Source: an uncultured Clostridia bacterium (GTDB taxonomy: Bacteria; Bacillota; Clostridia; Christensenellales; Aristaeellaceae). From it: a stretch of DNA of 52,104 nt. This document shows, piece by piece, positions 6,210-52,104 of this stretch. The stretch is from assembly GCA_947600345.1 (NCBI GenBank), contig CANQGC010000001.1:1-52104 (forward strand), given 5' to 3'. The notes beneath the pieces are model-generated. The model did not search any database. It was not told where the DNA came from and saw nothing but the letters and a program-made list of their open reading frames with translations. The position numbers and the translations under genes were made by a program. Numbering within the stretch: the stretch's first letter is position 1; the number at the start of each line of letters is the position of its first letter.

Positions 6210-6224
6210 CCATTTTCATCCGGC

Positions 6225-7520
6225 TCAGCCGCCGTAGCCCATGAAGATGCGCGGCAGGAACAGCACCACATCGGGGATGTAGGTGATGATTATCAACACC
6301 AGCAGCATCGCTCCCATGGGCAATAGAATTTCCTTGATGACGTCCTTCAGTGGCGTGTTGCTTACGCCGGAGGTGATGAACAGCAGCATGCCGAACGGCG
6401 GCGTGCACAGGCCGACCATCATGTTGAAAACGCAAACCAGGCCGAAGTGCAGCAGGTCGATGCCCAGCGCCGTGGCGATCGGGATCATCAGCGGCACGAA
6501 CACCGACTGGATGACCGACGTGTCGATGAACATGCCCAGAATCAGGATGGCGATGTTCACGATCAGCAGGAACACGTAGGGGTTGTTCGTCGTGTTCAGG
6601 ATGAAGTTGCGGATCGCCATGGAGACCTGCTCGCGGGCGGCGATGTAGTTGATGCACGCCGCGGCGCCGATCATCAGGGAACAGGTGCCCACGCCCTTGA
6701 CCGTCTCCTTCAGGATGTTCCACAGATCCTTCCAGCCCATCACGCGGTACACGAAGAAGGAAACCAGCAGCGCGTAGAAGCCCGCGACCGCGCCCGCCTC
6801 GGTGGGCGTCATGACGCCGGTGTAGATGCCCGCCAGCAGGATGATGGGGGTCAGCAGCGCCGGAATCGCCGTGAGGGTGGAGAACAGGAACTTCTTCAGG
6901 CCCATCTTCTGGGAGATGGGGTAGTTGCGCTTGTGGGCGACGAACATGATGTAGGCCATCAGCGCGATCGCCAGCAGTATGGCCGGAACCATGCCGCCCA
7001 GGAACAGCGCGCCGACGGAGGCGCCGGAGTACATGGCGTAGATGACCATCGGGATCGACGGCGGAAAGATCGGGCCGATGACCGCGGAGGCCGCGGTGAT
7101 GGCGCAGGAGAAGCCCGCGTCGTAGCCCTCGTTCTTCATGGATTCGATCTCCATCTTGCCCAGGCCGGAGGCATCCGCGATGGCGGAGCCGGTCATGCCG
7201 GCGAACACCAGGGAAGCCAGCACGTTCACGTGGCCCAGGCCGCCCTTGAAGCGTCCCACGAAGCCCAGCGCGAAGTCGAAGATCTTATCTGTGATCTTGC
7301 CGGAGTTCATCACGTTCGCGGCGAATATGAACAGCGGCACGGCGATGATCGTGTAGTTGGTGTAGAAGGTGGTCAGCGTCTGCTGGCCCACGGTCTCGAT
7401 GCCGCTTCCGCGGAAGATGAAGTAGAAGCAGCAGGCGGTCATCAGGCCCAGCGGGATGGGCATGCGCAGCACGAAGATCAGCACGAATACGATCAGAAAT
7501 ACAATCAGCGGAAGGCTCAC
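6225..7520 (-). CDS. TRAP transporter large permease (DctM family)
   Basis: 431 aa polytopic protein. GTG start overlaps the stop of the upstream small permease (GTGA). Confidence 0.85.
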   Translation of the reverse strand: MSLPLIVFLIVFVLIFVLRMPIPLGLMTACCFYFIFRGSGIETVGQQTLTTFYTNYTIIAVPLFIFAANVMNSGKITDKIFDFALGFVGRFKGGLGHVNVLASLVFAGMTGSAIADASGLGKMEIESMKNEGYDAGFSCAITAASAVIGPIFPPSIPMVIYAMYSGASVGALFLGGMVPAILLAIALMAYIMFVAHKRNYPISQKMGLKKFLFSTLTAIPALLTPIILLAGIYTGVMTPTEAGAVAGFYALLVSFFVYRVMGWKDLWNILKETVKGVGTCSLMIGAAACINYIAAREQVSMAIRNFILNTTNNPYVFLLIVNIAILILGMFIDTSVIQSVFVPLMIPIATALGIDLLHFGLVCVFNMMVGLCTPPFGMLLFITSGVSNTPLKDVIKEILLPMGAMLLVLIIITYIPDVVLFLPRIFMGYGG

Positions 7521-8095
7521 AGCATGCTGCCCCCTTCCTTGGAGGCCTCGATGGCCTGCTCGACCTCACTGGCGTTGAGAGACATATACTTCTTGCGATC
7601 CTCGTCGGAGGCGAGGCCGGTCCAAACCTTGAAGTCCAGGATCATGTCGCGAAGCATGTACAGTATCGTGAGCGCCAGGAACACGATGTAGGGGAAGTAG
7701 ACGATGTTCAGGCCGATCTTGAGCATGCTCGTCTTCTGCATCTTCATCATCAGAACGAACTTCAGGCTCGGCACGAACGCCCAGGTGAACGCCACGCAGA
7801 TCAGCAGGCTTCCCAGGAAGGTGCAGAAGGCGCGGCCGCGGATGGGCATCTTGTCGGTGATCAGGGTAAAGGTCACGTGGCCGTGATCGCGCTGAGCGTA
7901 GCACGCGCCCAGAATGACCAGCCACAGGTAGCACGACACCGTCACCTCATACGCCCAGGCCAGCGGCTGGCGCACGACGTAGCGGAAGAAGATTTGCAGC
8001 ACAAACGTCACGAACATGATCACAAAGGTCGCAACAGGGATGTAAATCTCCACGATGTCGCGCAGTATGTCGCGCGTCTTAATCAGTGAATTCAT
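7517..8095 (-). CDS. TRAP transporter small permease (DctQ family)
   Basis: Start taken at MNSLIK (ATG 8095), preceded by GGGGGGAA. The track start at 8110 is a TTG five codons upstream. Four TM helices. Confidence 0.8.
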   Translation of the reverse strand: MNSLIKTRDILRDIVEIYIPVATFVIMFVTFVLQIFFRYVVRQPLAWAYEVTVSCYLWLVILGACYAQRDHGHVTFTLITDKMPIRGRAFCTFLGSLLICVAFTWAFVPSLKFVLMMKMQKTSMLKIGLNIVYFPYIVFLALTILYMLRDMILDFKVWTGLASDEDRKKYMSLNASEVEQAIEASKEGGSML

Positions 8096-9216: not shown

Positions 9217-9270
9217 TGGGTAATCCTCCTTTTTTGAATTCTCCAAGCGAACCCTTGGGCCCGCACAGAT

Positions 9271-10071
9271 TCAGATGATGTGATTCTCCCGAAGGAAATC
9301 GAAGGTCGCGCGACAGCCCAGATCCATGTAGGCGATGTCGTCCCCGCAGCCGATGAAGTTTGCGCCGCGGCGCGCCCAGTCCGCGATGGAAGCTCTGTCC
9401 CCCGCGCCCAGCGACACGCCAAAGGACTTGCCCGCCGCTTTGCACTTCTCGGCGAAGCGATCGTAGATCGGGAACATCTCGGGGTTGCGGGTGTCGCAGA
9501 GGTGGCCGTAGGAGGCGGACAGGTCGTTCGGCCCGCAGATCAGCAGGTCGATGCCCTCCACCGTCAGAATATCGTCCAGGTTCTCGATGGCGTCTCTGTG
9601 CTCGATCTGCAGGATGCGCAAAAACGACCTCTCGGCGTTCTCCAGGTATTCGTCATTCTCCAGCGCGCCGTAGCGGTTTGCGCGCCGGGGGCCAAAGCCG
9701 CGCACGCCCTTGAGCGGGTAGGTGCAGGCGCGCACCGCATCGCGCGCCTCCTGGGCCGTGCACACCATCGGAAGGATGATGCCGTCCGGGCCCATCTCCA
9801 GGATCGGCTTGATCCGCACCGGATCGTTCCACGCCACGCGCACCAGCGAGGCCGTGCCCGCGGAGGCGCAGGCCGTGATGTGGCCGAGGATGGTGTTGAG
9901 GTCGAAGGCGGAGTGCTCCGCGTCGATCCACACCGCCTCGAAGCCGTGGTAGCCCAGCAGCTCCGAAATCTCCGGGTCGGTGAAGAACACGTGGCCGCCG
10001 ATCACCGGCCTGCCCGAGCGCAGCCGCTCGCGCAGCCGCTCGGCCATGGGAACGCGCGCGCAGCCGCTCAT
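9271..10071 (-). CDS. HpcH/HpaI-family aldolase (2-keto-3-deoxy sugar-acid aldolase-like)
   Basis: Start MSGCARVPMAERL at 10071, overlapping the upstream stop (ATGA). The remaining N-terminal part of the 451-aa track ORF lies inside the DHDPS-family gene. Family-typical segments WIDAEHS and ILPMV are present. Confidence 0.8.
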   Translation of the reverse strand: MSGCARVPMAERLRERLRSGRPVIGGHVFFTDPEISELLGYHGFEAVWIDAEHSAFDLNTILGHITACASAGTASLVRVAWNDPVRIKPILEMGPDGIILPMVCTAQEARDAVRACTYPLKGVRGFGPRRANRYGALENDEYLENAERSFLRILQIEHRDAIENLDDILTVEGIDLLICGPNDLSASYGHLCDTRNPEMFPIYDRFAEKCKAAGKSFGVSLGAGDRASIADWARRGANFIGCGDDIAYMDLGCRATFDFLRENHII

Positions 10072-15541: not shown

Positions 15542-16560
15542 GTTTCCTGATTCGCCAGACACTGATTTACGCGGTTCCCCTGATGATCGTCGCCCTGGCG
15601 GGCGTGTTCGCCGAGCGCAGCGGCATCATCAACCTGGCGCTGGAGGGCCTCATGATCTTCGGCGCGTTCATTGGCGTGCTGTTCGTACGCATCATGCAGC
15701 AGGCGGGCGTGTTTGAAACGTCCATGGGCGTGCTGCCGCTGCAGGGCTTCATGCTGCTTTCGATGCTGGTTTCAGCGGTACTGGGCGCGGTGTTCTCACT
15801 GCTGTTGGCCTTCGCCGCCATCAACCTGCGCGCGGACCAGACCATCGGCGGCACGGCGCTGAACCTGATGGCCCCGGCGCTGGTGCTGTTCTTCATCCGC
15901 ATCATCGCCAACCAGAACACGCTACAGATGGCCTCGGGCGACGCGGCGAGCTGGTTCATGATCAAGAAGAGTATGTTCGGCTACGGCCGCGGCCAGGAGA
16001 TGGGCTTCCTGGGCTCCACCTTCGTGGACAAGGTGTACCTCTCGACGTACATCTGCATACTGATCTACATCGTGCTCTCGATCATCCTATACAAGACGAA
16101 GTTCGGCCTGCGGCTGCGCTCCTGCGGAGAGAACCCCCAGGCCTCGGCCTCGCTGGGCATCAACGTCTACAAGATGCGCTACTGCGGCGTCATCATCTCC
16201 GGCGCGCTGGCGGGCATGGGCGGCTTCGTCTACGCCATGACCACAGCGAACTGCACCTCCAACGGCGACGTCGCCGGCTTCGGCTTCCTGGCGTTGGCGG
16301 TCATGATCTTCGGAAACTGGAAGCCGCTGAACATCTCCGGCGCGGCGCTGCTGTTCGGACTGTTCAAGTGCATCGCCGCCTCCTACTCGAGCCTGGACAT
16401 CAACGGCGACGGCGTGTACCTGCTGGCCCAACTGAACATCAATCCGAACTTCTACCGCCTGCTCCCCTATCTGATTACGCTGCTGGTGCTGGCCTTCACA
16501 TCGAAGAGCTCCCGCGCCCCCAAGGCCGAGGGCATCCCCTACGATCAGTCCACCAGGTAG
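15538..16560 (+). CDS. ABC transporter permease (BMP-type, second permease)
   Basis: 340 aa polytopic protein. ATGA overlap with the upstream permease. Confidence 0.85.
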   Translation: MSFLIRQTLIYAVPLMIVALAGVFAERSGIINLALEGLMIFGAFIGVLFVRIMQQAGVFETSMGVLPLQGFMLLSMLVSAVLGAVFSLLLAFAAINLRADQTIGGTALNLMAPALVLFFIRIIANQNTLQMASGDAASWFMIKKSMFGYGRGQEMGFLGSTFVDKVYLSTYICILIYIVLSIILYKTKFGLRLRSCGENPQASASLGINVYKMRYCGVIISGALAGMGGFVYAMTTANCTSNGDVAGFGFLALAVMIFGNWKPLNISGAALLFGLFKCIAASYSSLDINGDGVYLLAQLNINPNFYRLLPYLITLLVLAFTSKSSRAPKAEGIPYDQSTR

Positions 16561-16570
16561 GAACTGGAGT

Positions 16571-16702
16571 CATCTGCTGCCGCGCTCATGCGGCGGACTC
16601 CTGCCCCGCAGATCATGGGGCAGGAGTTCTGCGTTTCTTCCTTATATTATTCCTTTGTTCGAGGCACGGAATCCGCCCCCATAGATTCGAGGGGCGGATT
16701 CC
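16571..16702 (+). repeat. extragenic multi-hairpin element, copy 1 (module A, no 3' closing strand)
   Basis: CATCTGCTGCCGCG at 16571. Hairpin ACTCCTGCCCC-GCAGATCAT-GGGGCAGGAGT (16597-16627) and hairpin GGAATCCGCCCC-CATAGATTCGA-GGGGCGGATTCC (16668-16702). Confidence 0.8.
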
Positions 16703-16745
16703 TTCGTTTCGTTATTGCCTTTGCCTGTCCCTTCTGCGCGCCCGG

Positions 16746-22047: not shown

Positions 22048-23376
22048 CTATTTGCCGACGCAGAAGCTCTGGAAGACCCGGTCGATGACCTCCTCGGAGG
22101 CGTCCTCCCCGGTGATCTCCGAGAGGAATCCAAGCGCCCGGCGCAGGTCGATCTCCGCGAGATCCAGCGGCATGCCGGCGCGGATGCTCTCCTCCGCCGC
22201 CTCGATCGCCTCCAGGGAGAGCCCCGCCAGCCGCAGGTGCCTTTCCCCGGTCATGCGCTCCTCGGCGCCTCCCGCCACCGCCACGCGGCGCGTCAGCTCC
22301 TCGATCAGCTTCTCCACGCCCATGCCCGTCGCGGCGCTCAGCTCCAGCGCGCCGGGATGGCCGCTCCGCCTCGGCAGGTCGCACTTGTTCAGGCAGACGA
22401 TGCTCCGCCCGTCCGCGGCCCCCAGCAGCGCCTCGTCCTCGGCGGTGAGCGGCTCGGAGGCGTCCAGCACGATCACCACCACGTCCGCGCCCTCCACGGC
22501 CCGCTCCGCGCGCTCCACGCCGATGCGCTCCACCGGGTCGCCCGTCTCGCGCTGTCCGGCGGTGTCCGAGAGCTCGGCGCAGATGCCGCCCAGCTGAATG
22601 CGCTCGGTGAGCACATCGCGGGTGGTGCCGGGGACTTCGGTCACGATGGCGCGCTCCTGCCGAAGCAGCGCGTTCATCAGCGAGGACTTCCCCACGTTCG
22701 GCCTGCCCGCCAGCACGATGCTCGCGCCCTCGCGAATCAGTCTTGCGCTCCTGGGATCGCAGCGATCTTCGATCTCGGCATGGATTTGGGCCAGCTCCTC
22801 CAGCGTCAGGCGCGCGGCCTCCGGCTCGTCCACCTCCTCGGGAAAGTCGGTGCAGGCCTCGATCCGCGCCATACAGCCCTTGAGTTGATCGGAAACCTTG
22901 CGCACGAAGCCGGACACGCCGCCCTCGAGCTGGCGCAGCGAAGCCCGCGCCGCGGCCTCGGAGTTCGCGCCGACCAGCGCCATGACCGCCTCCGCCCGAC
23001 TCAGGTCGATCCTTCCGTTCAGGAAGGCTCGCTTGGTAAACTCCCCGGGCTCCGCGATCCGCGCGCCCAGCGCGATGGTCCGATCCAGGACCCTGCGGGC
23101 GCAGACGCTCCCGCCGTGGCACTGGATCTCGAACATGTCTTCCCGGGTGTAGGTTCCGGGGCCCGGCAGCCACACCGCCAGCACCTCGTCGAGCTCCTCC
23201 CCTTTCGCTCCCACGGCCCGGCCATAGGTCATCCGGCGCGGAACGAGCGCTCCCTTCCCCTCCGGCCGGAAGCAGCCGCCGAGGATGCGCGCCGCCTCCG
23301 CGCCGCTGCCGCGGACGATGGCGATGCCTCCCTCGCCGGGCGCGGTGGCCACGGCGCAGATGGTGTCCCGTTCCAT
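22048..23376 (-). CDS. mnmE: tRNA modification GTPase MnmE
   Basis: Starts MERDTICAVAT at 23376 (TGATG overlap with the dnaN stop). G-domain GRPNVGKSSL, DTAG. C-terminal FCVGK (the C-I-G-K motif). Confidence 0.9.
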   Translation of the reverse strand: MERDTICAVATAPGEGGIAIVRGSGAEAARILGGCFRPEGKGALVPRRMTYGRAVGAKGEELDEVLAVWLPGPGTYTREDMFEIQCHGGSVCARRVLDRTIALGARIAEPGEFTKRAFLNGRIDLSRAEAVMALVGANSEAAARASLRQLEGGVSGFVRKVSDQLKGCMARIEACTDFPEEVDEPEAARLTLEELAQIHAEIEDRCDPRSARLIREGASIVLAGRPNVGKSSLMNALLRQERAIVTEVPGTTRDVLTERIQLGGICAELSDTAGQRETGDPVERIGVERAERAVEGADVVVIVLDASEPLTAEDEALLGAADGRSIVCLNKCDLPRRSGHPGALELSAATGMGVEKLIEELTRRVAVAGGAEERMTGERHLRLAGLSLEAIEAAEESIRAGMPLDLAEIDLRRALGFLSEITGEDASEEVIDRVFQSFCVGK

Positions 23377-24485
23377 CAGCGGGCGCCGGTGCGCACCGGC
23401 AGGATCAGGTGCACGTAGTCCTCGTCGCCCACGGGCGTCACCACGCAGGGGGATACCGCGCTGTTCAGGTTCATCTCGATGCTCTCGGCGTCGATGAAGC
23501 GCACCACGTCGGTCAGGTACTTGACGTTGAAGGCGATGTTCAGATCGGCGCCCTCCTGCTGAATCTCCAGCTCCTCGTGCACATCGCCAATCTGGGAGTG
23601 GGCCTCCACCACCATCGTGCCGCCGGAAATCTTCAGCATGATCAGATTGTTGCTGCCCTCGCGGGCGATCAGCGCGGCGCGGTCGATGCAGCGGCGGAAG
23701 GGCTCGAGCTCCATCTCCACCCGCGTGGCGAAGCTCTTCGGCAGAATCTGGCGGTACTGGATGTACTCGCCCTCCACCAGGATCACGAATATCTCGGTGT
23801 TGTCCAGGCGAATGTGCAGCTTGTTGCCGCCGAAGGAGAGCTGGGCGAAGGCGTCCTCGTCGCCGGAGAGCAGCTTGCCGATGTCGCCCACGGCCCGGCC
23901 CGGTATGATGGCCGAAACCTGCTCCAGCACGTCCGAGCACTTGGCCCGGCGCAGCGCGAGCCGGTAGCCGTCCAGCGCCACCATGTTCACGTCCCCTCCG
24001 CCGATCTCCAGCAGGCAGCCGGTCAGCACCTCGCGCATGTCATCCTGGGCGATGGCAAACTCGGTCTTTTGGATCATGTCGCGCAGCATGTCCTGGGGCA
24101 GGGCGATCTCCCGCTCGTCCTCCATGCGGGGAAGCATCGGGAAGAGGTCGGCGTCCTGGCCGGAGATGTTCATGCGCGTGGATGCGCTGCGGATGGTGAA
24201 TATGTAGCGCTCGTCCATGCGGATGTCCACGTCGCTGTCCGGAAGCCGGCGCACGATCTCGCTGAACAGTTTGCCCGGAACCACGCCGCGGCCGGAGTCG
24301 CGAATCTCCGCCGGGATACGGGTGACGATGGTGATGCGCTCGTCGGAGCAGGTGAGCACCAGCTGATCGACGCCGGTCTCGATCAGCACGCCCTCCAGAA
24401 TCTGGTTGGTGGTGCGGCTCGCCAGCGCCTTCGTCGCGATTTGCAGCGCTTCGATCAGCTTCGCGGTGGAACAGATGAATTGCAT
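23376..24485 (-). CDS. dnaN: DNA polymerase III beta sliding clamp
   Basis: MQFICSTAKLIEALQ... is a typical DnaN N-terminus. AAGGAGG lies 9 nt before ATG 24485; there is an alternative ATG at 24491. Confidence 0.9.
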   Translation of the reverse strand: MQFICSTAKLIEALQIATKALASRTTNQILEGVLIETGVDQLVLTCSDERITIVTRIPAEIRDSGRGVVPGKLFSEIVRRLPDSDVDIRMDERYIFTIRSASTRMNISGQDADLFPMLPRMEDEREIALPQDMLRDMIQKTEFAIAQDDMREVLTGCLLEIGGGDVNMVALDGYRLALRRAKCSDVLEQVSAIIPGRAVGDIGKLLSGDEDAFAQLSFGGNKLHIRLDNTEIFVILVEGEYIQYRQILPKSFATRVEMELEPFRRCIDRAALIAREGSNNLIMLKISGGTMVVEAHSQIGDVHEELEIQQEGADLNIAFNVKYLTDVVRFIDAESIEMNLNSAVSPCVVTPVGDEDYVHLILPVRTGAR

Positions 24486-24555
24486 GTGCATGCGCCTCCT
24501 TGTGTCTGTTGCGGTTGAAATCTATATGTAGTCGTCATAGTAGAGCGGTGTATAC

Positions 24556-24656
24556 TGTGGATAACGCGGAAAAAGCCTTAAATAAGTCGCTTTTTCGACG
24601 CTTTTTTGTCAACAAGCGCCGTGGATAAGCGGTGCATAAGCGCGAGGTTTTCCACA
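24556..24656. other. DnaA-box cluster in the dnaA-dnaN intergenic region (oriC part)
   Basis: TGTGGATAA (24556-24564, a perfect TTATCCACA complement), CGTGGATAA (24620-24628) and TTTTCCACA (24648-24656). Confidence 0.7.
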
Positions 24657-24688
24657 ATCATCCCTTCTCCGGTCGTCCCCATCCGGAA

Positions 24689-26002
24689 TCATCCGTTGCG
24701 GATCTTCTCCTGAAGCTCCTCGATTCGCCGCTTGAGGGTGGGGTCGCGCTCCATGTCCGCCGCCACGCGCTCGCACCCGTGCATCACGGTGGTGTGGTCC
24801 CTGCCCCCCAGGGCCTGGCCGATGGTGGTGGTCGAGAGCTGGGTGAGGCTCCGGCACAGGTACATGGCAATCTGCCTGGGCGTGGCGATGTCCCGGTTGC
24901 GCTTCTTGGAGAGCAGGTCCTCCACGCTCACGCCGAAGTAGTCCGAGATCGCGGCGAGGATGCGCTCCGGGGTGATCTGCTTCTCCTCCTGGGCCTTGAA
25001 CACCTGGGAGAGCAGCTGCCGCGCCAGCTCCAGGCTGATGGGCACGCCCTGCAGCTCGCTCTGGGCCTTCAGGCGGTTGAGTATGCCCTCCAGCTCGCGG
25101 ATGTTGGATTCCACGCAGTAGGCGATGTGGTCGATCACCTCGTAGGGGACGTCGATGCCCTCCTCCGCGGCCTTCTTGTTGAGTATGGCCACGCGAGTCT
25201 CGTACTCGGGCTTGCCGATGTCCACGATCAGCCCCCACTCGAAGCGGGAGCGCAGGCGCTCCTCGATGGTGGGGATGTCCTTGGGCGGGCGGTCCGAGCT
25301 GATGATGATCTGCTTTCCGCTGTTGTACAGGTCGTTGAAGGTGTGGAAGAACTCCTCCTGCGTCTGCTTGGTTCGCGCGAGAAATTGGATGTCGTCCACC
25401 ATCAGCACGTCCACGTTGCGCATGCGCTTGCGCAGGGCGGAGGTGTCCTTCTTGCGCACGATGGCGTCGATCAGCTCGTTGGTGAAGCTCTCCGAGGTGG
25501 TGAGGAACACGCGCTTGCTCGGATCCGCGCCGGTGATGAAGTTTCCGATGGCGTTCATCAGGTGGGTCTTGCCCAGGCCGACGCTTCCATAGATGAACAG
25601 CGGGTTGTAGGCCTCGCTGGGCTGCTCCGCCACGGCCAGGCAGGCGGCGTGGGCGAAGGAGTTGCTGGGGCCGACGATGAAGTTTTCGAAGGTGTAGCGC
25701 TTGTTGAGCGTGGTCTGGGAGATCTCGCTCTCGAGCTTCTCCACCTCCTCGGGCGTGCAGATCTTGAGCTCGTAGCTCTGGCCGAAGCAGCGCTCGATCA
25801 TGTTGTAGAGGTTCGTGTAGTAGCGCTGCTTGACGGTGTCCCGGTGCACGAAGCTCTCCGCGCAGAGCACGACCGCGTCCTCCGTCACGGCCTGCAGCCG
25901 AAGCGGGGCGATCCAGGTATCATAGACGTAGGGAATCATGTTCTCCTTCATGATGGAGGAGACCTTCTCCCACGCCTGCTTCTGTTCCGCTGTGTAGTTC
26001 AT
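24689..26002 (-). CDS. dnaA: chromosomal replication initiator DnaA
   Basis: AAA+ Walker A GSVGLGKTHL and box VII. C-terminal DNA-binding segment DHTTVMH. GGAGG RBS. Confidence 0.95.
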   Translation of the reverse strand: MNYTAEQKQAWEKVSSIMKENMIPYVYDTWIAPLRLQAVTEDAVVLCAESFVHRDTVKQRYYTNLYNMIERCFGQSYELKICTPEEVEKLESEISQTTLNKRYTFENFIVGPSNSFAHAACLAVAEQPSEAYNPLFIYGSVGLGKTHLMNAIGNFITGADPSKRVFLTTSESFTNELIDAIVRKKDTSALRKRMRNVDVLMVDDIQFLARTKQTQEEFFHTFNDLYNSGKQIIISSDRPPKDIPTIEERLRSRFEWGLIVDIGKPEYETRVAILNKKAAEEGIDVPYEVIDHIAYCVESNIRELEGILNRLKAQSELQGVPISLELARQLLSQVFKAQEEKQITPERILAAISDYFGVSVEDLLSKKRNRDIATPRQIAMYLCRSLTQLSTTTIGQALGGRDHTTVMHGCERVAADMERDPTLKRRIEELQEKIRNG

Positions 26003-26075
26003 GCAACCTCCGCGCGCCTCAACGCGCGTTCCCTCCGAAGGGAGAAGCGCGCGCTTCCTCCGATAATGTGTATCT

Positions 26076-26104
26076 ATTTTATCAGAAACGCTTTAAAAAT
26101 GCAA
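26076..26104 (-). promoter_or_regulatory. candidate dnaA promoter
   Basis: On the minus strand: TTGCAT (26099-26104), 17-nt spacer, TAAAAT (26076-26081). Confidence 0.5.
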
Positions 26105-26155
26105 TCCAAAGGGAGAGCGCGTTGCGAAGCTCCGCCGAAGGGGCGGAGGGCGGCC

Positions 26156-26216
26156 TGTGAATAAGCTGTGGACGGTTGGTGGATGGTCTGGGGATATCCT
26201 GTTGACATTATCCGTA
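26156..26216. other. degenerate DnaA boxes upstream of dnaA (oriC part)
   Basis: TGTGAATAA (26156-26164, 1 mismatch), TGTGGACGG (26167-26175) and TTATCCGTA (26208-26216). A relatively AT-rich stretch lies at 26066-26105. Confidence 0.5.
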
Positions 26217-26322
26217 TATAATCATCTTTGACGAACTGCGCAAAAGGAGCGATGAAATTTTTCTGTCGAATTTCGGTGCGATTTCCGCCCTGCCTTCGCC
26301 GTTCGGCGGGGCAGGGCAGCCC

Positions 26323-31675: not shown

Positions 31676-33296
<1,621 letters not shown>

Positions 33297-33298
<2 letters not shown>

Positions 33299-33660
33299 GG
33301 CCGGCGGGGCCGGCAGCCATCTGCTGCCGCGCTGAGGCGACGGAAACCTGCCCCGTAGATTATGGGGCAGGTTTCCTGCGTCTCGTTTCTGATGAAAGCT
33401 TTGTTCGAAGCACGAAATCCAGCCCGTAGATCATGGGCTGGATTTCTTTGTTTTGGCGAACGGGGCATGGGTTCGCAGGCGGCAGCAGAAGGGAGAATCC
33501 AAGGAACCTCAGGTTCCTTGGTAGGAATTCTCAAGGGACAAAGTCCCTTGAGCAGGTCTGGGCAGCGCCTAGCATAACCCCAGCGGCCCGCGCCAAATCT
33601 ATGCCCGGCAATTCGTACAATGGCGTCATCGTTCCATACCGCGGGCCGCCACTAACTCGC
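33297..33660 (+). repeat. extragenic multi-hairpin element, copy 2 (modules A+B)
   Basis: Small hairpin GGCCGGC-GGG-GCCGGC. Closing stem 33320-33330/33479-33489 around hairpins at 33342-33376 and 33414-33446. Then palindromes CCAAGGAACC-TCA-GGTTCCTTGG, CTCAAGGGAC-AAA-GTCCCTTGAG and GGCCCGCG...CGCGGGCC. Confidence 0.85.
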
Positions 33661-33782
33661 AGGGTCCGGGGCGGCAGCCCCGCCGAAGCGCAGCGGAGGC
33701 GTAACCCCAAACCGATCGCTCCATTGCCTCCATATCACGGGCTGTAGCGGATTCTCCTCCTCACGCAGTGCCCGCCGCCAAT

Positions 33783-42571: not shown

Positions 42572-43260
42572 TCCGCCGCTTCCCACTGCTGCGCAGCGCG
42601 AATGATCTGGCCGCGCTGGTGAACGAGGTCGGCTTCGTGCCCTTCTTCATCAACGAGATCCCCGGCTTCTCCATAGAAGAGAGCACGCCCGGCGAGCTCT
42701 GGTTCGAGGAGGGCGCCGACGGCCCCTGGGAGTGGAAGGATCGCACCATCCAAGGCGCGGGCTGCGCCTATGGCAAGTTCTACCGGGGCCGCGCCATGTA
42801 CATAAGCCGCGAATGGTTTCCGGACTTCTGTAACTACCGCCGCGACGGCTACGACTTCGAGGGCTTCTATAACGACGGCCACGCCGGCAAGCGGGATAAG
42901 CGCCTGCTGGACGCGCTGGCGGAGACCGGCCCGGCGCAGGCGCGGGATCTGAAGCGCCAGGCTAAGTTCGATAAGGACGAGCGCCGGGGCTTCGATGGAT
43001 TGCTGACAAGGCTGCAGATGCAGACGTTTCTGCTGATCGACGGCATTGAGTACCGCACGGACCGCTTCGGCCAGCGCTACGGCTGGGGCGTGTGCCGCTA
43101 CGCGACGCCGGAGCAAAGGTTCGGAGAAGGCTTCCTGGCGGAAGCCTATGAAAGGGAGCCGAAGGAATCCGGACAAAGGATACTGGAGCAGCTTCATAAG
43201 CTCCTGCCCGACGCCAGCGAAAGCGCGCTCGCTGCAGTCCTGGGCAAAGGCCCATCGTAA
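42568..43260 (+). CDS. hypothetical protein, possibly an AlkZ/YcaQ-related winged-helix protein
   Basis: 230 aa with coding-like composition. ATGA overlap with the ftsK stop. The family guess has low certainty. Confidence 0.6.
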   Translation: MIRRFPLLRSANDLAALVNEVGFVPFFINEIPGFSIEESTPGELWFEEGADGPWEWKDRTIQGAGCAYGKFYRGRAMYISREWFPDFCNYRRDGYDFEGFYNDGHAGKRDKRLLDALAETGPAQARDLKRQAKFDKDERRGFDGLLTRLQMQTFLLIDGIEYRTDRFGQRYGWGVCRYATPEQRFGEGFLAEAYEREPKESGQRILEQLHKLLPDASESALAAVLGKGPS

Positions 43261-43263
43261 CCC

Positions 43264-43500
43264 CAGAAGGGAGAATCCAAGGAACCTCAGGTTCCTTGGC
43301 AGGAATTCTTAAGGGACAGCGTCCCTTAAGCAGGTCTGGGCGGAGCCCAGCGTCACCCCAGCGGCCCGCGGTATCCATCCAAAGCCCGACAAAGTGCCCC
43401 ACCGCCCCACCGCCCCCATACCGCGGGCCGCCGCGGCGCCTTTCAAATTGGAAAGCCAAGGCTTTCCAATTTGAAACAGCCGCCACTAACTCTCAAGCGA
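43264..43500 (+). repeat. extragenic multi-hairpin element, copy 3 (module B only)
   Basis: Starts CAGAAGGGAGAATCC. Palindromes CCAAGGAACC-TCA-GGTTCCTTGG, CTTAAGGGAC-AGC-GTCCCTTAAG, TCTGGGC-GGA-GCCCAG, GCGGCCCGCGGTAT...ATACCGCGGGCCGC and TTCAAATTGGAAAGCC-AAG-GCTTTCCAATTTGAA. Confidence 0.85.
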
Positions 43501-44890: not shown

Positions 44891-45445
44891 ATGAATCTTC
44901 CGAATAAACTAACGATGCTTCGCGTGGTGATGATTCCACTGTTCGTGATTCTGGCGCTGGTGCAGCGGCAGTGGGCCCAGTACCTGGCGCTGCTGGTGTA
45001 CATCGCGGCCTGCGTCACGGATCTGTTCGATGGAAAGATCGCCCGGGCGCGGCACCTGGTCACCGACTTCGGCAAGTTTGCCGATCCCATCGCGGACAAG
45101 CTGCTGGTGATGTCGGCGCTCATTGTGCTGGTGGATTCCCAGAGGATGCCCGCCTGGGTGTGCATCGTGATGCTGGCGCGGGAGTTCATCATCTCCGGCC
45201 TGCGCATGGTGGCGGCGGGCAAGGGCACCGTGATCGCCGCGGCGATGCTGGGCAAGCTCAAGACGGTGTTCCAGATGAGCGCCACCATCGCGCTGATGCT
45301 GCTGGTGCCGGTACAGGGGCGGCCGCTGCTGGGCCACTTCGGCGTGGTGCTGGCAAACATACTGATGTACGTCGCCGCCGTGCTGACCATCGTCAGCGGC
45401 GTGGAGTACGTCATGAAGAACATCGACTGCATATCGGACATGTAG
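44891..45445 (+). CDS. pgsA: CDP-diacylglycerol--glycerol-3-phosphate 3-phosphatidyltransferase
   Basis: MNLPNKLTMLRV... with a CDP-alcohol phosphatidyltransferase motif (D.FDG..AR....T.FG.F.DP.ADK). Confidence 0.9.
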   Translation: MNLPNKLTMLRVVMIPLFVILALVQRQWAQYLALLVYIAACVTDLFDGKIARARHLVTDFGKFADPIADKLLVMSALIVLVDSQRMPAWVCIVMLAREFIISGLRMVAAGKGTVIAAAMLGKLKTVFQMSATIALMLLVPVQGRPLLGHFGVVLANILMYVAAVLTIVSGVEYVMKNIDCISDM

Positions 45446-45596
45446 CAGGCAGGGCCTGCGCCCGTCTGCTGCCGCGTTGGAGCGACGGACTTTTGCCCCG
45501 TAGATTATGGGGCAAAAGCCCTGCGTCTGTGCGTCGGTTGGTTCCTTTGTTCGGAGCACGAAATCCAGCCCGTGGATTATGGGCTGGATTTCTTCG
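45446..45596 (+). repeat. extragenic multi-hairpin element, copy 4 (module A, no 3' closing strand)
   Basis: Hairpin GCAGGC-AGG-GCCTGC, then CGTCTGCTGCCGCG, then hairpins at 45489-45519 (loop GTAGATTAT) and 45560-45592 (loop GTGGATTAT). Confidence 0.8.
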
Positions 45597-45615
45597 CTGG
45601 AATTGGGGTTGGGCG

Positions 45616-45643
45616 TTGACTTGTAGGGAAATTTTGTTATAAT
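45616..45643 (+). promoter_or_regulatory. sigma-A type promoter with extended -10
   Basis: TTGACT, 16-nt spacer ending TGt, TATAAT (45638-45643). Confidence 0.65.
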
Positions 45644-47036: not shown

Positions 47037-47112
47037 ATGTAATAGAAAAGTAAAGCTTTTCCAGGAACTTTTTAACCAGGGGGCAGTCCAAGGAATAAAG
47101 GAGTGGTGATTC

Positions 47113-47958
47113 ATGAAAAAGGCAGTTCTCCGGTTTGTCATTGCGCTTCTGACGATCTCCGTCGCTCTCACCGTCTTGACCGGAATCGCACTTGCGGATG
47201 CGATCTACGCCTCCGGCGGCGATTCCTACATCCGCAGCCAGCCGAGCCTGTCCGGCGCGCAGGTGGGTCTCTTCCCGGAAGGCGCCGTGGCCAGCTACCT
47301 GGGCAACAGCTCGGTGGACAGCCGAGGCGTGACCTGGTACTACATCTCCTACAACGGCAAGACCGGTTGGGTGTCCTCCCGCTACACTTCCTTCTCCGGA
47401 AGCTACAGCGCGCCGAGCTACAGCGTGCCGAGCTACGTCGTTCCCGGCTACAGCGTCCCCAGCTACAGCAGCGGCACGATCTACGCCTCCGGCGGCGATT
47501 CCTACATCCGCAGTCAGCCGAGCCTGTCCGGCACGCAGCTCGGAACCTTCCCGGAGGGCGCGGCGGCCAGCTACCTGGGCAACAGCTCGGTGGACAGCCG
47601 GGGCGTGACCTGGTACTACATCTCCTACAACGGCAAGACGGGCTGGGTGTCCTCCCGCTACACCTCCTTCACCGGAGGCTACAGCTACAGCGTGCCGAGC
47701 TACGTCGTGCCCGGCTATGTCGTGCCCGGCTACAGCGTGCCCTCCTACAGCGGCAGCGTCGTGTATGGCTCCGGCGGCGACTCCTACATCCGCAGCCAGC
47801 CGAGCCTGTCCGGCACGCAGATCGGAACCCTTCCGGAGGGCGCGGCGGCCAGCTACCTGGGCAACAGCTCGGTGGACAGCCGAGGCGTGACCTGGTACTA
47901 CATCTCCTACAACGGCAAGACGGGCTGGGTGTCCTCTCGCTACACCTACCTGTCCTGA
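47113..47958 (+). CDS. secreted protein with three SH3b (bacterial SH3) repeats and Tyr/Ser/Pro/Val-rich linkers
   Basis: Signal peptide MKKAVLRFVIALLTISVALTVLTGIALA. Three units of GGDSYIRSQPSLSG...GNSSVDSRGVTWYYISYNGKTGWVSSRYT. Confidence 0.85.
   Translation: MKKAVLRFVIALLTISVALTVLTGIALADAIYASGGDSYIRSQPSLSGAQVGLFPEGAVASYLGNSSVDSRGVTWYYISYNGKTGWVSSRYTSFSGSYSAPSYSVPSYVVPGYSVPSYSSGTIYASGGDSYIRSQPSLSGTQLGTFPEGAAASYLGNSSVDSRGVTWYYISYNGKTGWVSSRYTSFTGGYSYSVPSYVVPGYVVPGYSVPSYSGSVVYGSGGDSYIRSQPSLSGTQIGTLPEGAAASYLGNSSVDSRGVTWYYISYNGKTGWVSSRYTYLS
47203..47952 (+). repeat. in-frame tandem DNA repeat (3 units, period about 276-282 bp) inside the SH3b gene
   Basis: Units start near 47203, 47479 and 47761, with long near-identical runs (e.g. 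TACATCCGCAGCCAGCCGAGCCTGTCCGGC). Confidence 0.85.
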
Positions 47959-47972
47959 TCGAAAATTTCAAA

Positions 47973-47999
47973 GGCGGTCGCGAAAGCGGCCGTCTTTTT
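47973..47999 (+). terminator. rho-independent terminator
   Basis: GGCGGTCGC-GAAA-GCGGCCGTC (two G-U pairs) followed by TTTTT. Confidence 0.65.
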
Positions 48000-48093
48000 G
48001 AACAAAAGTGCTCAACCGGTGCGCTATACTGATATCAGAAAGTGAATCGAGCGGACGCGCCGCCGATTCTACAAAAACAAGGAGGGGTTCATC

Positions 48094-48843
48094 ATGAAGA
48101 AACTGTTCACCAAGAAGCTCGCGCTCGCAATGCTGCTCTGCCTGCTGCTGACCGCCATCTCCGCCACGGCCCTGGCCGACGGCATCACCGCCGTGGAGGA
48201 GCACTGCTACATCCGCACCGCGCCGGGACTGAACGGGGAGATCATCTACACGGTGCCCGTCGGCGCGACGGCGACCTACCTGGGCGATACGTCGGTGGAC
48301 AATCGCGGCGTGACCTGGTACAAGGCCACCTACGACGGCGTCACCGGCTGGATGTCCGGCCTGCAGATCAGCCTGAGCTCCGACTACAGCTCCTATGACG
48401 ATTACGGTTACGACCTGATCGCCGTGGAGGAGCACTGCTACATCCGCACCGCGCCGGGGCTGAACGGGGAGATCATCTACACGGTGCCGGTGGGTGCGGC
48501 GGCGGCCTACCTGGGCGATACGTCGGAGGACAACCGCGGCGTGACCTGGTACAAGGCCGACTACAACGGCATCCGGGGCTGGATGTCCAGCCTGCAGGTC
48601 AAGCTGAGCTACGGCGGCTCCGCTGGCTCCGCCGGCGGTGTCATCACGGCCGTGGAGGAGCACTGCTACATCCGCACCGCGCCGGGGTTGAACGGCGAGA
48701 TCATCTACACGGTGCCGGTGGGCGGCAAGGCGACCTACCTGTACGATACGTCGGTGGACAATCGTGGCGTGACCTGGTACAAGGCCACCTACGACGGCGT
48801 CACCGGCTGGATGTCCGGCCTCCAAATCCGCACAAACTTTTGA
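48094..48843 (+). CDS. secreted protein with three SH3b repeats
   Basis: Signal peptide MKKLFTKKLALAMLLCLLLTAISATALA. Three units of AVEEHCYIRTAPGLNGEIIYTVPVG...DNRGVTWYKA.Y.G..GWMS.LQ. Confidence 0.85.
   Translation: MKKLFTKKLALAMLLCLLLTAISATALADGITAVEEHCYIRTAPGLNGEIIYTVPVGATATYLGDTSVDNRGVTWYKATYDGVTGWMSGLQISLSSDYSSYDDYGYDLIAVEEHCYIRTAPGLNGEIIYTVPVGAAAAYLGDTSEDNRGVTWYKADYNGIRGWMSSLQVKLSYGGSAGSAGGVITAVEEHCYIRTAPGLNGEIIYTVPVGGKATYLYDTSVDNRGVTWYKATYDGVTGWMSGLQIRTNF
48181..48831 (+). repeat. in-frame tandem DNA repeat (3 units, period about 225-234 bp) inside the SH3b gene
   Basis: Units start near 48181, 48415 and 48640, sharing GCCGTGGAGGAGCACTGCTACATCCGCACCGCGCCGGG. Confidence 0.85.
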
Positions 48844-49330
48844 CGGCGGGGCCGTCGGCCATCTGCTGCCGCGTTTAAGCGACGGACTTGGGGCCCGTAG
48901 ATTATGGGCCCCAAGTCCTGCGGTGCGTTTCTGAAGGAGCGATTGTACGAAGCACGACCTCTGGCCCCATAGATCCGAGGGCCAGAGGTCTTCGTTTGGG
49001 GAACGGGAGCTTGGCCTAAACGCGGCAGCAGAAGGGAGAATCCAAGGAACCTCAGGTTCCTTGGCAGGAATTCTTAAGGGACAGAGTCCCTTAAGCAGGT
49101 CTGGACGGAGTCCAGAACGGGTCCGGGCGGAGCCCAGCGTTACTCCTGCGGCCCGCGGTATTCAAATCATTGCTTGGGAATGCGAACCAAGGCTCCATCG
49201 CCTCCATACCGCGGGCCGCGCGAGGCGAGTTTTTGGAATGGGAAGCCAGAAGGCTTCCCATTCCAAAAGAGCAAACGGACGCTTCGCTTTGCCCGCCCTA
49301 ACGCTGCGACAGAACCAAACCTCGGCATTT
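48842..49330 (+). repeat. extragenic multi-hairpin element, copy 5 (full length, modules A+B)
   Basis: GACGGC-GGG-GCCGTC. 16-bp closing stem 48862-48877/49017-49032 around hairpins at 48884-48918 and 48956-48990. Palindromes at 49042-49064, 49073-49095 and 49100-49116, a 14-bp long-range stem 49148-49161/49206-49219, and a 17-bp hairpin at 49231-49268. Confidence 0.9.
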
Positions 49331-49493
49331 GCCAGAACAAGAAGGCTTTCCCCGATATTCTGAGTGCCATCCAGATTCCCGGAGGGCGCTCTTTTGTTTG
49401 CTCAGAAAACTCAAAAGTAGAGTATGGATTCAAAAAATAGACATAATAGCATGGTATTTAGCCATAAGTCGGCACAATATTAGCATTCTCCCA

Positions 49494-49522: not shown

Positions 49523-49608
49523 ATACCCGTACCAAGGAAGCGCCAATCAAGCGGCGCTCCCCCAAGAATCCAGAATCCATACTTCCAATAATGAAAGGGG
49601 AATTTACC

Positions 49609-49914
49609 ATGAAGAACACTCTGAAGATTATGATCGCGATCATCCTGAGCCTGACTCTGATCCTTGGAACCGCCGCGCTGGCGTGCGACGAGGGCGGATA
49701 CTTCTACGGAGCCGTGGTCGCCACGGGCGGCGACAGCTACATTCGAGACGAACCGAACCTGAACGGAAGCATCCTCGGCAGCCTGGGCGAAGGTAGGACG
49801 GCGATCTTCTACGGATACAGCTCGTTTGACAGCCGCGGGGTAGAGTGGTACCTGATCGACACCGGCAGCACATTCGGCTGGGTGTCCTCCCGGTACACGA
49901 CGCTGTACTACTAA
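49609..49914 (+). CDS. small secreted protein with a single SH3b repeat
   Basis: AAAGGGGAA RBS then MKNTLKIMIAIILSLTLILGTAALA. GGDSYIRDEPNLNGS...SRGVEWYLI...GWVSSRYT. Confidence 0.75.
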   Translation: MKNTLKIMIAIILSLTLILGTAALACDEGGYFYGAVVATGGDSYIRDEPNLNGSILGSLGEGRTAIFYGYSSFDSRGVEWYLIDTGSTFGWVSSRYTTLYY

Positions 49915-49992: not shown

Positions 49993-50509
49993 TTTGGAGA
50001 ATGCCGGAGGTTTGGTTCAGGCGTGGCGTTCGGGCGTGGTAAAGCGAAGCGTCCGTTTGCTCTTTTGGAATGGGAAGCCCTGGGCTTCCCATTCCAAAAC
50101 TCGCTTCGCGCGGCCCGCGGTATGGAGGCGATGGGGCGTTGGTTCGCATTGCCGGGCAACGACTTGAATACCGCGGGCCGCCGGGGTGACGCCGGGCTCC
50201 GCCCGGACCCGCTGGGCTCCGCCCAGACCCGTTCTGGGCTCTGCCCAGACCTGCTTAAGGGACTCTGTCCCTTAAGAATTCCTGCCAAGGAACCTGAGGT
50301 TCCTTGGATTCTCCCTTCTGCTGCCGCGCTGTGAGCCAAACCCCCGTTCCCCAAACGAAGACCTCTGGCCCTCGGATCTATGGGGCCAGAGGTCGTGCCT
50401 CGTACTTCGCTCCCTACAGAAACGCACCGCAGGACTTTGGCCCCATAATCTACGGGGCCAAAGTCCGTCGCCCATACGCGGCAGCAGATGGCCGCCCGCA
50501 CTGCGGGCT
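49993..50509 (-). repeat. extragenic multi-hairpin element, copy 6 (full length, inverted orientation)
   Basis: The reverse complement aligns with copy 5 over about 480-500 nt, through all modules, with an extra TCTGGGC-type hairpin. The module A end (CATCTGCTGCCGCG on the minus strand, 50477-50490) faces the recA promoter. Confidence 0.9.
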
Positions 50510-50523
50510 GGTTCGCGAAAAAA

Positions 50524-50537
50524 TAAACGTGTGTTCG
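50524..50537. promoter_or_regulatory. possible LexA (Cheo-type SOS) box
   Basis: TAAACGTGTGTTCG versus CGAACRNRYGTTCG. The right half is perfect and the left half reads AAAC. It lies about 25 nt upstream of the recA -10. Confidence 0.35.
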
Positions 50538-50558
50538 ATATACTTCCGGGGAGGGATG

Positions 50559-50567
50559 TGTTATAAT
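50559..50567 (+). promoter_or_regulatory. extended -10 element of the recA promoter
   Basis: TGtTATAAT, 36 nt upstream of the recA ATG. No good -35. Confidence 0.5.
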
Positions 50568-50602: not shown

Positions 50603-51718
50603 ATGGCAGTGGATAAGAAGGCGGAAAAGAAGCCCGCGGAGAAAAAGTTTGGCGATGACCGCAAGAAGGCGCTGGAGATTGCGCTGGGTAAGATTGAGAA
50701 GGACTTCGGCAAGGGCTCGGTGATGAAGCTGGGCGCGGCGGCGGATCGCATGCAGGTGGAGGTCATCCCCACGGGCTCGCTGCAGCTGGACTTCGCGCTG
50801 GGCGTGGGCGGACTGCCGAAAGGGCGCATCATCGAGATCTACGGCCCGGAATCCTCCGGTAAGACCACCGTGGCGCTGCACTGCATCGCGGAGGCGCAGA
50901 AGCAGGGCGGCACGGCGGCGTTCATCGACGCGGAGCACGCGCTGGACCCGGTCTACGCGGAGCACCTGGGCGTGGACATCGACGAGCTCTACGTCGCCCA
51001 GCCGGACAACGGCGAGCAGGCGCTGGACATCTGCGAGGCGCTGGTGCGCTCGGGCGCGATCGACATCGTGGTCATCGACTCGGTGGCGGCGCTGGTGCCC
51101 AAGGCGGAGATCGAGGGCGACATGGGCGACAGCCACGTGGGCCTGCAGGCCAGATTGATGTCCCAGGCCCTGCGCAAGCTGGCGGGCGTGATCGCGAAGA
51201 CGAACGCCATTGCGATCTTCATCAACCAGCTGCGCGAGAAGGTGGGCGTGGTGTACGGCAATCCGGAGACGACGACGGGCGGCAAGGCTTTGAAGTTCTA
51301 CGCCTCGGTGCGGCTGGACATCCGCAAGGGCGAGCCGATCAAGGACGGCTCGGAGGTCATCGGCAACCGCACGAAGATCAAGGTGGTGAAGAACAAGGTT
51401 GCGCCGCCGTTCCGCTCCTGTGTGGTGGACATACTCTACGGCGAGGGCATCTCGGCCTCGGGCGAGCTACTGGATCTGGCCGTGGAGCGGGAGCTGATCA
51501 AGAAGTCGGGCGCGTACTACAGCTACAATGGCGAGCGGATCGGCCAGGGCCGCGACAATGCGCGCAAGTTCCTGATGGATCATCCGGACGTCTACGAGGC
51601 GCTGGAGAAGGCCATCCGCGAGTCCTTTGCCGCCACTCCCGCCGCGGAGCCCGCCATGACCATCGAGCCCATCGACGATCCCGACGACGACCTCGACGAC
51701 TTCGACCTCGACTCCTAG
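50603..51718 (+). CDS. recA: recombinase RecA
   Basis: Walker [10 protein letters not shown], with FIDAEHALD and [20 protein letters not shown]. Acidic C-terminal tail. Confidence 0.97.
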
Positions 51719-52104
51719 GCGGCAGTGCCGCCTTCCATCTGCTGCCGCGACTGGGCGACGGACTTTGGCCCCGTAGATTATGGGGCCAAAGTCCTGCGGT
51801 GCGTTTCTAAAGGAGCGATTGTGCAGAGCGACGAAATCCTGCCCCATAGATCCGAGGGCAGGATTTCTGCGTTTTGGCAATGGGACGCAGTGGGACAGCG
51901 CGGTAGCAGAGGGGAGAATCCAAGGAACCTCAGGTTCCTTGGCAGGTCTGGGCAGCGCCCAGCGTGGCCCCTGAGGCTGCGGTTTGTAGGCGGCTGCGGG
52001 TTGAGGAGAAAAGGCAACGCCCAGCAGGCGGCAGCAGAAGGGAGAATCCAAGGAACCTCAGGTTCCTTGGCAGGTCTGGGCAGCGCCCAGCGTAGCCCCT
52101 GAGG
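51719..52104 (+). repeat. extragenic multi-hairpin element, copy 7 (module A plus two tandem short module-B units; truncated by the window end)
   Basis: GGCGGCA-G-TGCCGCC. Closing stem 51738-51749/51899-51910 (one G-U pair) around hairpins at 51760-51794 and 51833-51867. GGAGAATCCAAGGAACCTCAGGTTCCTTGGCAGGTCTGGGCAGCGCCCAGCGT occurs twice (from 51912 and from 52041). Confidence 0.85.

Follow-up and report, generated by a model that had tools for sequence, protein, structure and literature searches.

A dispersed family of variable-stem hairpin units found at the 3' ends of genes in uncultured Clostridia

Repetitive extragenic palindromes (REPs) are palindromes of 20 to 50 nt that have a conserved tetranucleotide, usually GTAG, immediately in front of them (PMC8266576). 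In the Bacillus cereus group, bcr1 is a repeat of about 155 bp with 5-bp direct repeats and compensatory changes that folds like a cruciform with two stem-loops; SPRITE, about 105 nt long, is a dispersed repeat with an intrinsic-terminator-like fold, and BOX is a modular array of sub-elements (PMC3184786). Here, we describe a repeat unit of about 160 nt, rich in hairpins, in a 52,104-nt stretch of DNA (contig CANQGC010000001.1 from an uncultured Clostridia bacterium; the whole stretch is hereafter called the window), where one copy directly follows groEL and others follow further genes, as they do in related genomes. The window GroEL is 96% identical to that of a metagenome-assembled genome (MAG) labelled Aristaeellaceae, and the window RecA has its closest matches, with identities of up to 94%, in MAGs of uncultured Clostridia. 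The Aristaeellaceae are an uncultured, poorly studied group of Clostridia known mainly from metagenome assemblies, and to our knowledge no noncoding repertoire has been described for them.

A preliminary description of this DNA had drawn attention to positions 33320-33489, 22 nt 3' of the groEL stop codon, as a domain with two hairpins (module A). Upon re-reading the window sequence, we found the arms, loops, and coordinates of this architecture to be right, as were the stems listed for the other copies, the G.T pairs at 16596/16628 and 51744/51904, and the A.C mismatch in copy c4. The predicted RNA fold of the segment reaches -103.8 kcal/mol, versus -59.9 +/- 4.0 kcal/mol for dinucleotide shuffles (z = -10.9), and the z-scores of the minus strand and of single-stranded DNA (ssDNA) are similar. 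Six copies of module A lie in the window (c1, c2, which is the focal copy, c4, c5, c6, and c7), with 11 matches to the loop motif versus 0.76 expected and 12 matches to the 5' arm versus 1.26 expected. The two hairpins are real, and what had been missed is that the unit also contains T-rich tails and a small GC hairpin, h0 (6-7 bp stem, 3-nt loop), which in the focal copy sits between the groEL stop and the 5' arm, and that it has a wider family in relatives.

We then looked into loci of relatives, which were fetched contigs (designated by L numbers) encoding close RecA and GroEL homologs. A covariance model (CM) built from 15 units found 23 strong units (77-163 bits) in the 194 kb covered by the window and the relatives, in at least eight related uncultured Clostridia. 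The unit runs in the order stop codon, h0, box GCTGCCGCG, hairpin 1, T-rich spacer, hairpin 2, and T-rich tail. The long hairpins, of the form GAAWYCC-NNN-CCC / loop / GGG-NNN-GGRWTTC, are perfect palindromes of 12 to 15 bp, each with a T-rich run after it. A two-loop pattern scan of metagenome contigs revealed related units on five contigs, some of them in tandem arrays.

The same gene ends carry units in different lineages. Units are located 3' of recA in the window and in L071, L077, L078, and L079 (= L080, L081), where the RecA proteins are about 90% identical, and the architecture at this site matches throughout while the stems differ between lineages. The 3' end of groEL carries units in the window, L082, L083, and L084, and units were found directly 3' of gdh in L083 (three in tandem) and L084. 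A one-hairpin version follows a binding-protein gene in L078, and the recA site of L070 has an ordinary terminator instead of a unit. The L082 unit begins at the groEL stop and has the 7-nt loop ACGAGCA; the GroEL in question (5426-7663) is called as 745 aa, and the called start is probably too far upstream. Tandem arrays were seen in L074 (88-285), L076 (1-303), L072 (1040-1200), and L083 (381-1166). Where two units of an array meet, the 3' arm of the hairpin that comes first is truncated 5-9 nt past its loop and is succeeded by the h0 of the next unit; two of the L076 units, about 95% identical, differ completely in their h0 hairpins.

We then analyzed the pairing of the stems. Among 24 type-I hairpins (those with a 9-nt loop), double changes were found at 10 of 13 pairs and 94.3% of cells pair; 81 cells are doubly changed, compared to 21.8 +/- 4.8 in shuffles, and slid controls are at most 59% paired. 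An alignment of the 23 CM-aligned units (A5) showed double changes at 27 of 34 pairs, with 94.8% of cells pairing versus 74.9 +/- 0.9% in shuffles and at most 54.5% with slid partners, the slid-partner test being the sole control for the relatedness of the units. By helix, double changes occurred at 6/6 pairs in h0 (helix 1; 97.1% of cells pair), at 12/15 in hairpin 1 (helix 3; 95.1%), and at 7/10 in hairpin 2 (helix 4). A5 was fitted to the CM and leans towards it; independent MAFFT alignments agree. Covariation is thus strong whether paralogous units are compared or units that occupy one genomic site in different lineages, in line with the initial suggestion that the stems differ yet stay complementary and are not decaying repeats.

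The position and orientation of the units are also biased. In 15 of 20 units, the h0 stem starts inside the stop codon, or a few nucleotides past the stop codon, of a long open reading frame (ORF) rich in GC at third codon positions (GC3); 12 of these were called by script, and c1 and both L078 units, which fall outside the script limits, were read by eye. By a manual tally, the unit points the same way as its upstream gene at 16 of 18 judgeable loci, and a count of 16 or more has a probability of about 7e-4 under random orientation. T makes up 0.47-0.50 of the 12 nt that follow each long hairpin (0.50 for hairpin 1), compared with 0.24 overall, and a simple terminator scan called the focal hairpin 2 (33414-33446). 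At c4 and at the relatives' recA sites, the unit is the sole hairpin between the stop codon and the promoter of the next gene, and plain terminators in relatives have the GAAATCC...GGATTTC frame of the unit.

No named Rfam family corresponds to the unit, a check that the preliminary description had proposed: the whole window gave no match at gathering thresholds, and under permissive settings the best hit in 33250-33700 scored 20.9 bits against a threshold of 70. The searchable literature gave no match for the loop sequence or for repeats in this clade, plasmid and phage sequences gave none with the focal complex as query in a distant blastn, and pattern scans of viral contigs found no units. 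The pattern TCTGCTGCCGCGNNNNNGCGNCGGA matched 67 loci in a collection of species-representative genomes, all of them single chance matches in coding or unrelated DNA and none with hairpins, the pattern being too specific for relatives. The repeat family, which belongs to rumen-type Clostridia, is undescribed, although its kind, that of structured dispersed intergenic repeats, is already known. We consider it very likely that a maintained, clade-wide repeat family exists.

Starting from what is observed, namely, the family, its position, orientation, and covariation, the T-rich tails, and the persistence at the same gene ends, we propose, with about an even chance of being right on sequence evidence, that the unit is a dispersed hairpin cassette of 3' untranslated regions (3' UTRs) that serves termination and/or 3'-end protection of the upstream gene. 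The tandem long hairpins and their U-rich tails would act in the transcript as intrinsic terminators or as blocks to 3' exonucleases, and h0 at the stop codon would protect the 3' end of the reading frame or tune its termination. The unit would have been copied as DNA to many 3' ends, and signs of dispersal are seen in the six units within 52 kb, the tandem arrays, the combinations with modules B-F (see below), and the empty L070 site. Recombination or gene conversion would keep the copies similar within each genome, and such exchange would give discrete loop types and mosaics with other hairpin modules. When replication switches templates at a quasipalindrome, a change in one arm is transferred to the other. 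Stem pairing would be upheld by selection for hairpin formation, probably with help from this process, which would account for the near-absence of wobble intermediates.

Several observations weigh against this proposal. The stems are almost purely Watson-Crick (425 Watson-Crick cells, 4 G.T, and 4 A.C in the stems of h0 and hairpin 1), whereas far more G.U would be expected if pairing were selected in RNA only. On average, the folding energy of the plus strand is 4.9 kcal/mol more favorable than that of the minus strand, and shuffles give 6.4 kcal/mol, so that the gap is a composition effect and we rejected a strand call from folding energy. The earlier hint of a plus-strand RNA consequently did not hold, and since G.T equals A.C and the strand gap is shuffle-like, the pairing could exert its effect, or be preserved, in DNA; the scarcity of wobble suggests DNA palindromes, of which it is more typical. 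Termination also leaves unexplained why a few discrete loop types recur. A simple terminator criterion picks out only 1 of the 12 window hairpins, the loops, with 9-11 nt, are larger than is usual in intrinsic terminators, and the U-tracts are not continuous. The c6 and L072 units are antisense to their neighbors, and the groEL units of L083 and L084 follow a separate ordinary-looking terminator, so the unit is not needed there.

A different reading, which we regard as unlikely, is that of an ssDNA element, either like the mosaics of REPs known as bacterial interspersed mosaic elements (BIMEs) or derived from IS200/IS605 in the manner of palindrome-associated transposable elements (PATEs): a Y1 HUH transposase encoded elsewhere would read the loops and mobilize the units, whose 3'-end position would then reflect tolerated or targeted insertion, not an RNA function. 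The units are indeed multicopy, mosaic, and sometimes tandem, with junctions that cut a 3' arm 5-9 nt past the loop, and they lack terminal duplications. Their perfect Watson-Crick palindromes without G.T excess suit DNA hairpins, discrete loop types are what recognition by a protein would give, and c5 and c6 form an inverted pair of roughly 500 bp around a gene that relatives lack. Contacts of Y1 transposases with their hairpins involve loops and irregularities in the stem (PMC8266576).

The comparison with REPs proper argues the other way. GTAG lies in the loop in the window (CCCC-GTAGATTAT-GGGG), the 5' foot of the hairpin being GACGGA or CACGAA, and a scan of the window for GTAG next to a perfect palindrome found none; GTAG in the loop rather than at the foot excludes REP membership, as the preliminary description had cautioned, and many members have loops without GTAG. 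The inverted REP/iREP pairing of BIMEs and REPINs is absent as well, since hairpins 1 and 2 are in direct orientation and carry their asymmetric loops the same way in every unit. The sense bias and the exact abutment on stop codons are not REP or IS200 features, and the units stay at the same gene ends across lineages. A Pfam search of about 45 ORFs confirmed that the window has no gene for a REP-associated tyrosine transposase (RAYT) or for any other transposase, the Y1 type included; a tblastn search of 0.72 Mb of fetched loci with an E. coli RAYT query returned only noise, in what was a weak test.

True GTAG-tagged perfect palindromes do occur beside the units in relatives L072-L076 and L083, which favors the ssDNA element and suggests that a genuine REP/RAYT-type system exists elsewhere in the clade. 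They were seen in L075 (1358, 1425), L076 (319, 450, 530, 2872, 2924), L072 (2603), and L083 (568, 966), with examples such as GTAG-GGACGCCA-TAAT-TGGCGTCC, GTAG-GGGCGCCG-ATG-CGGCGCCC, and GTAGGG-CGGGGTG-CCCT-CACCCCG.

The loops raise a further alternative, which we hold to be rather improbable: the unit would be, rather than simply a terminator, a protein-binding RNA motif whose loops bind a clade-specific factor, for example one for termination, antitermination, or decay or one coupled, at the stop-codon hairpin, to translation termination. Within the window, the loops of hairpin 1 are far more conserved than stems and spacer are, with a mean pairwise difference of 0.074 compared with 0.25 for the stems (0.25-0.34 for stems and spacer). 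The statement that the loops are always conserved stands to this extent but fails family-wide, where loops differ as much as stems (0.34-0.53). We distinguished at least four discrete types, GYRGATYAT, CATAGATYMGA, CAYTGATTWAA, and GGCARGAAT / GGCGGCTAT, with ACGAGCA seen once, so that loop conservation is a feature within a genome. One site can hold different loop types in different lineages, which indicates that whole hairpins were replaced between copies rather than that points drifted.

In favor of an RNA-binding motif, a few loop types of 9-11 nt recur across lineages, most of them with an invariant GAT core, and the units are in sense orientation, start at stop codons, and follow highly expressed housekeeping genes (groEL, recA, gdh). 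Against it, in addition to the family-wide loop divergence, the GAT core is missing from GGCARGAAT, GGCGGCTAT, and ACGAGCA, the sense strand has no G.U enrichment, and no candidate protein is known. Loop types might, on a similarly doubtful footing, be recognition codes for a dedicated clade protein, either a loop-reading HUH/Y1 nuclease or an RNA-binding factor acting with h0. The first case, if true, would define a new REP-like class with the tag in the loop instead of at the foot; the second would link, for many housekeeping mRNAs, 3'-end formation or decay to the completion of translation. Pairing of the loop (GUAGAU) with the 5' box (AUCUGC) in a pseudoknot was also considered by eye and rejected because box and loops do not covary in relatives; a tRNA-like CCA after h0, k-turn or T-loop folds of the loops, and CS-6 loops of plasmid single-strand origins had no consistent support and were dropped.

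It is very unlikely, in our estimation, that the units are functionless palindromes whose arms are kept complementary only by template-switching or by mismatch correction in extruded hairpins. Such neutral upkeep would fit the near-perfect Watson-Crick stems with equal and very low G.T and A.C, a stem divergence rate about that of the spacer, and the similar behavior of the neighboring modules B-D. However, the nonpalindromic boxes GCTGCCGCG, GACGRA, and TCTGYG..TTTCTG have been kept across lineages despite divergence of the intergenic spacer, selection or targeting is required to explain the orientation bias and the abutment on stop codons, and the same gene ends keep their units at about 10% RecA divergence.

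The preliminary description had also presented module A as a closed two-hairpin domain, and this part did not survive. A closing stem is present in the focal copy (11 bp, formed by the 5' arm TCTGCTGCCGC at 33320-33330 and GCGGCAGCAGA at 33479-33489) and in c5, c6, and c7 (Table 1) and is absent from c1 and c4. The 3' arm occurs in 4/6 window copies and 0/17 units from relatives; it is always fused to module B (AGGGAGAATCCAAGGAACC...), with which it travels, as in an orphan copy of arm and module B without module A at 52027-52038. The arm sequence is invariant, so there is no covariation evidence for this stem, and we treat it as a lineage-specific juxtaposition of two modules and not as a defining helix. 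A classical miniature inverted-repeat transposable element, in which the 12-16 bp arms would be the terminal inverted repeats of a nonautonomous cut-and-paste transposon and the hairpins its cargo, is in keeping with the arms TCTGCTGCCGCG and CGCGGCAGCAGA that bound a 170-bp segment in four window copies and with the typical size and copy number, but it is highly improbable and largely refuted, since a target-site duplication is lacking (each of the four closed copies is flanked by ..CCA at its left end and AGGGAG.. at its right), the 3' arm is either missing or bound to module B as just described, and h0, itself part of the unit, falls outside the segment that the arms enclose.

Table 1. Positions of the focal unit, the other window units, and associated features (window coordinates)
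Feature	Position	Strand	Remarks
groEL ORF	31679-33298	+	Cpn60_TCP1, E = 9e-81
groEL stop codon TGA	33296..33298	+	repeat unit begins directly 3'
h0, small GC hairpin GCCGGC-GGG-GCCGGC	33300..33314	+	abuts stop codon; belongs to unit
5' box/arm TCTGCTGCCGCG	33320..33331	+	core conserved across family, GCTGCCGC
Hairpin 1, 13-bp stem and 9-nt loop GTAGATTAT, then TGCGTCTCGTTTCTG	33342..33376	+	arms GGAAACCTGCCCC (33342-33354) and GGGGCAGGTTTCC (33364-33376)
T-rich spacer between hairpins 1 and 2	33377..33413	+	
Hairpin 2, 12-bp stem, loop GTAGATCAT, T-rich tail TTTGTTTTGG	33414..33456	+	terminator-like; arms GAAATCCAGCCC (33414-33425) and GGGCTGGATTTC (33435-33446)
3' arm GCGGCAGCAGA	33479..33489	+	complement of 33320-33330; contiguous with module B
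Modules B-E, small hairpins CCAAGGAACC/GGTTCCTTGG, CTCAAGGGAC/GTCCCTTGAG, GTCTGGGC/GCCTAG[AC]	33490..33650	+	repeat families D4, D5, D7; also holds a closed GCGGCCCGCG...CGCGGGCCGC segment
Unit c1 (module A at 16573)	16552..16714	+	CM 136.6 bits; without 3' arm; after ABC permease gene (stop 16558-16560)
Unit c4 (module A at 45465)	45444..45604	+	CM 139.5 bits; without 3' arm; after CDP-alcohol phosphatidyltransferase gene; strong predicted promoter follows (45616-45643)
Unit c5 (module A at 48862)	48841..49032	+	CM 157.8 bits; 16-bp closing stem; after SH3_3 repeat protein gene; modules B-F then run to about 49345
Unit c6 (module A at 50488)	50317..50509	-	CM 153.3 bits; 12-bp closing stem; upstream of recA, behind no gene on its own strand; inverted partner of c5 complex
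Unit c7 (module A at 51738)	51717..51910	+	CM 150.3 bits; after recA; 12-bp closing stem including one G.T
Modules B-E alone, no module A	43257..43420	+	directly after stop of AlkZ-related gene

Modules downstream of module A were mapped at 33490-33650, 43257-43420, 49033-49345, and 51911-52104. Module B reads CCAAGGAACC-TCA-GGTTCCTTGG and module C CTTAAGGGAC-AGA-GTCCCTTAAG, the focal copy of the latter having the compensated change CTCAAGGGAC/GTCCCTTGAG; module D, GTCTGGGC-GGA-GCCCAG, is REP-like and present in 1-3 tandem copies, module E is closed by GCGGCCCGCGGTAT...ATACCGCGGGCCGC, and module F is TTTGGAATGGGAAGCC...GGCTTCCCATTCCAAA. L068 contains a B-like module whose stem differs yet still pairs. 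CsrA-type GGA sites in modules B and C were considered and dropped, GGA being in stems and not in loops.

The window is core chromosome, with dnaA, dnaN, groES/groEL, recA, ftsK, and transporter genes. Both dnaN (23376-24491) and dnaA (24689-26002) are on the minus strand and are followed by a 320-bp gap, and this region (23376-26320) is probably that of the chromosomal origin. The top strand of the unit is on the lagging-strand template in 4/6 window units, a count of six being too small to separate this from gene orientation. A crude GC3-based gene map has no high-GC3 ORF in 22133-23376 (1.2 kb) or 9246-10068 (0.8 kb).

The c5 complex (48841-49345, plus strand) and the c6 complex (50509-49985, minus strand) form an inverted repeat of about 500 bp that flanks an AT-richer segment of 640 bp, in which a small secreted SH3_3 gene (49591-49914) has its own promoter-like site. 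In L071, L078, and L079, the SH3 repeat gene is directly followed by recA, which indicates that the 1.7-kb block is an insertion in the lineage of the window. A conserved SOS-box-like sequence of the Gram-positive type lies 5' of recA (CGAACACACGTTT in the window, 50515-50560; GAACATATGTTCG in L071, 2700-2730) and is the right-hand limit of the c6 complex insertion. The stretch 47125-48841 contains two sets of coding sequence repeated in tandem, three copies of 276 nt and three of about 228 nt; two ORFs are predicted in this region, 47103-48032 and 48094-48843, the second of which is the SH3_3 / Big_4 repeat protein gene.

The units mark the 3' ends of core genes (groEL, recA, gdh), and since the CM detects the family easily, it could help to annotate transcript ends and assembly breakpoints in these MAGs. 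A set of hairpins with variable stems could also separate selection on RNA pairing from the upkeep of palindromes in DNA by template-switching, which are usually confounded. A loop-reading protein, if it exists, would extend the REP/RAYT paradigm or reveal a new layer of 3'-UTR control.

Among known systems, the REPs and BIMEs of Enterobacteria and Pseudomonas resemble the unit as high-copy, GC-rich intergenic hairpins that are often located just 3' of genes, form mosaics and tandem clusters with other small motifs, and have stayed in the same places in related genomes. Stabilization of mRNA 3' ends and termination have been attributed to REPs, functions like those proposed here for the unit; Liang, Rudd, and Deutscher reportedly found, in work from 2015 in Mol Cell, that translation of a gene is affected when a REP lies within 15 nt of its stop codon. 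REP stems are conserved, however, whereas those of the unit vary between copies, and the unit, with its length of about 160 nt, nonpalindromic boxes, direct hairpins, and GTAG in the loop, differs from a REP of 20-50 nt; nor is a RAYT gene known for the family. PATEs, which are derived from IS200/IS605, have subterminal hairpins at both ends, insert 3' of a fixed target of 4-5 nt, and show a replication-related strand bias; the unit has two hairpins without terminal inverted repeats or duplications, and stop codons are the only fixed target seen.

Like the unit, bcr1 is a dispersed repeat of Firmicutes of about 155-170 bp with a two-hairpin fold and compensatory changes. It differs in its 5-bp direct repeats, its distribution among strains, which is not conserved, and its lack of stop-codon abutment, whereas the unit has no duplication and is kept at the same gene ends; the two were compared by their descriptions. 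The pneumococcal SPRITE and BOX are likewise thought to act as RNA in 3' or 5' UTRs, but their sequence and host clade are other ones, the unit has two hairpins plus one at the stop codon, and its combination of variable stems with discrete loop types is not described for them. Rho-independent terminators share with the unit a GC-rich stem with an A-rich 5' side and a T-rich 3' side, the sense orientation, and stems that differ from gene to gene; yet the terminators of unrelated genes do not have homologous flanking boxes, spacers, and loops, as the units do, and the unit departs from an ordinary terminator in its loops of 9-11 nt and its interrupted U-tracts. The closest analogs in behavior are BIME mosaics, bcr1, and the pneumococcal SPRITE and BOX, and what distinguishes the present family from these, with bcr1 judged from its description, is the combination of a stop-codon hairpin, variable stems, discrete loops, and the same gene ends across lineages.

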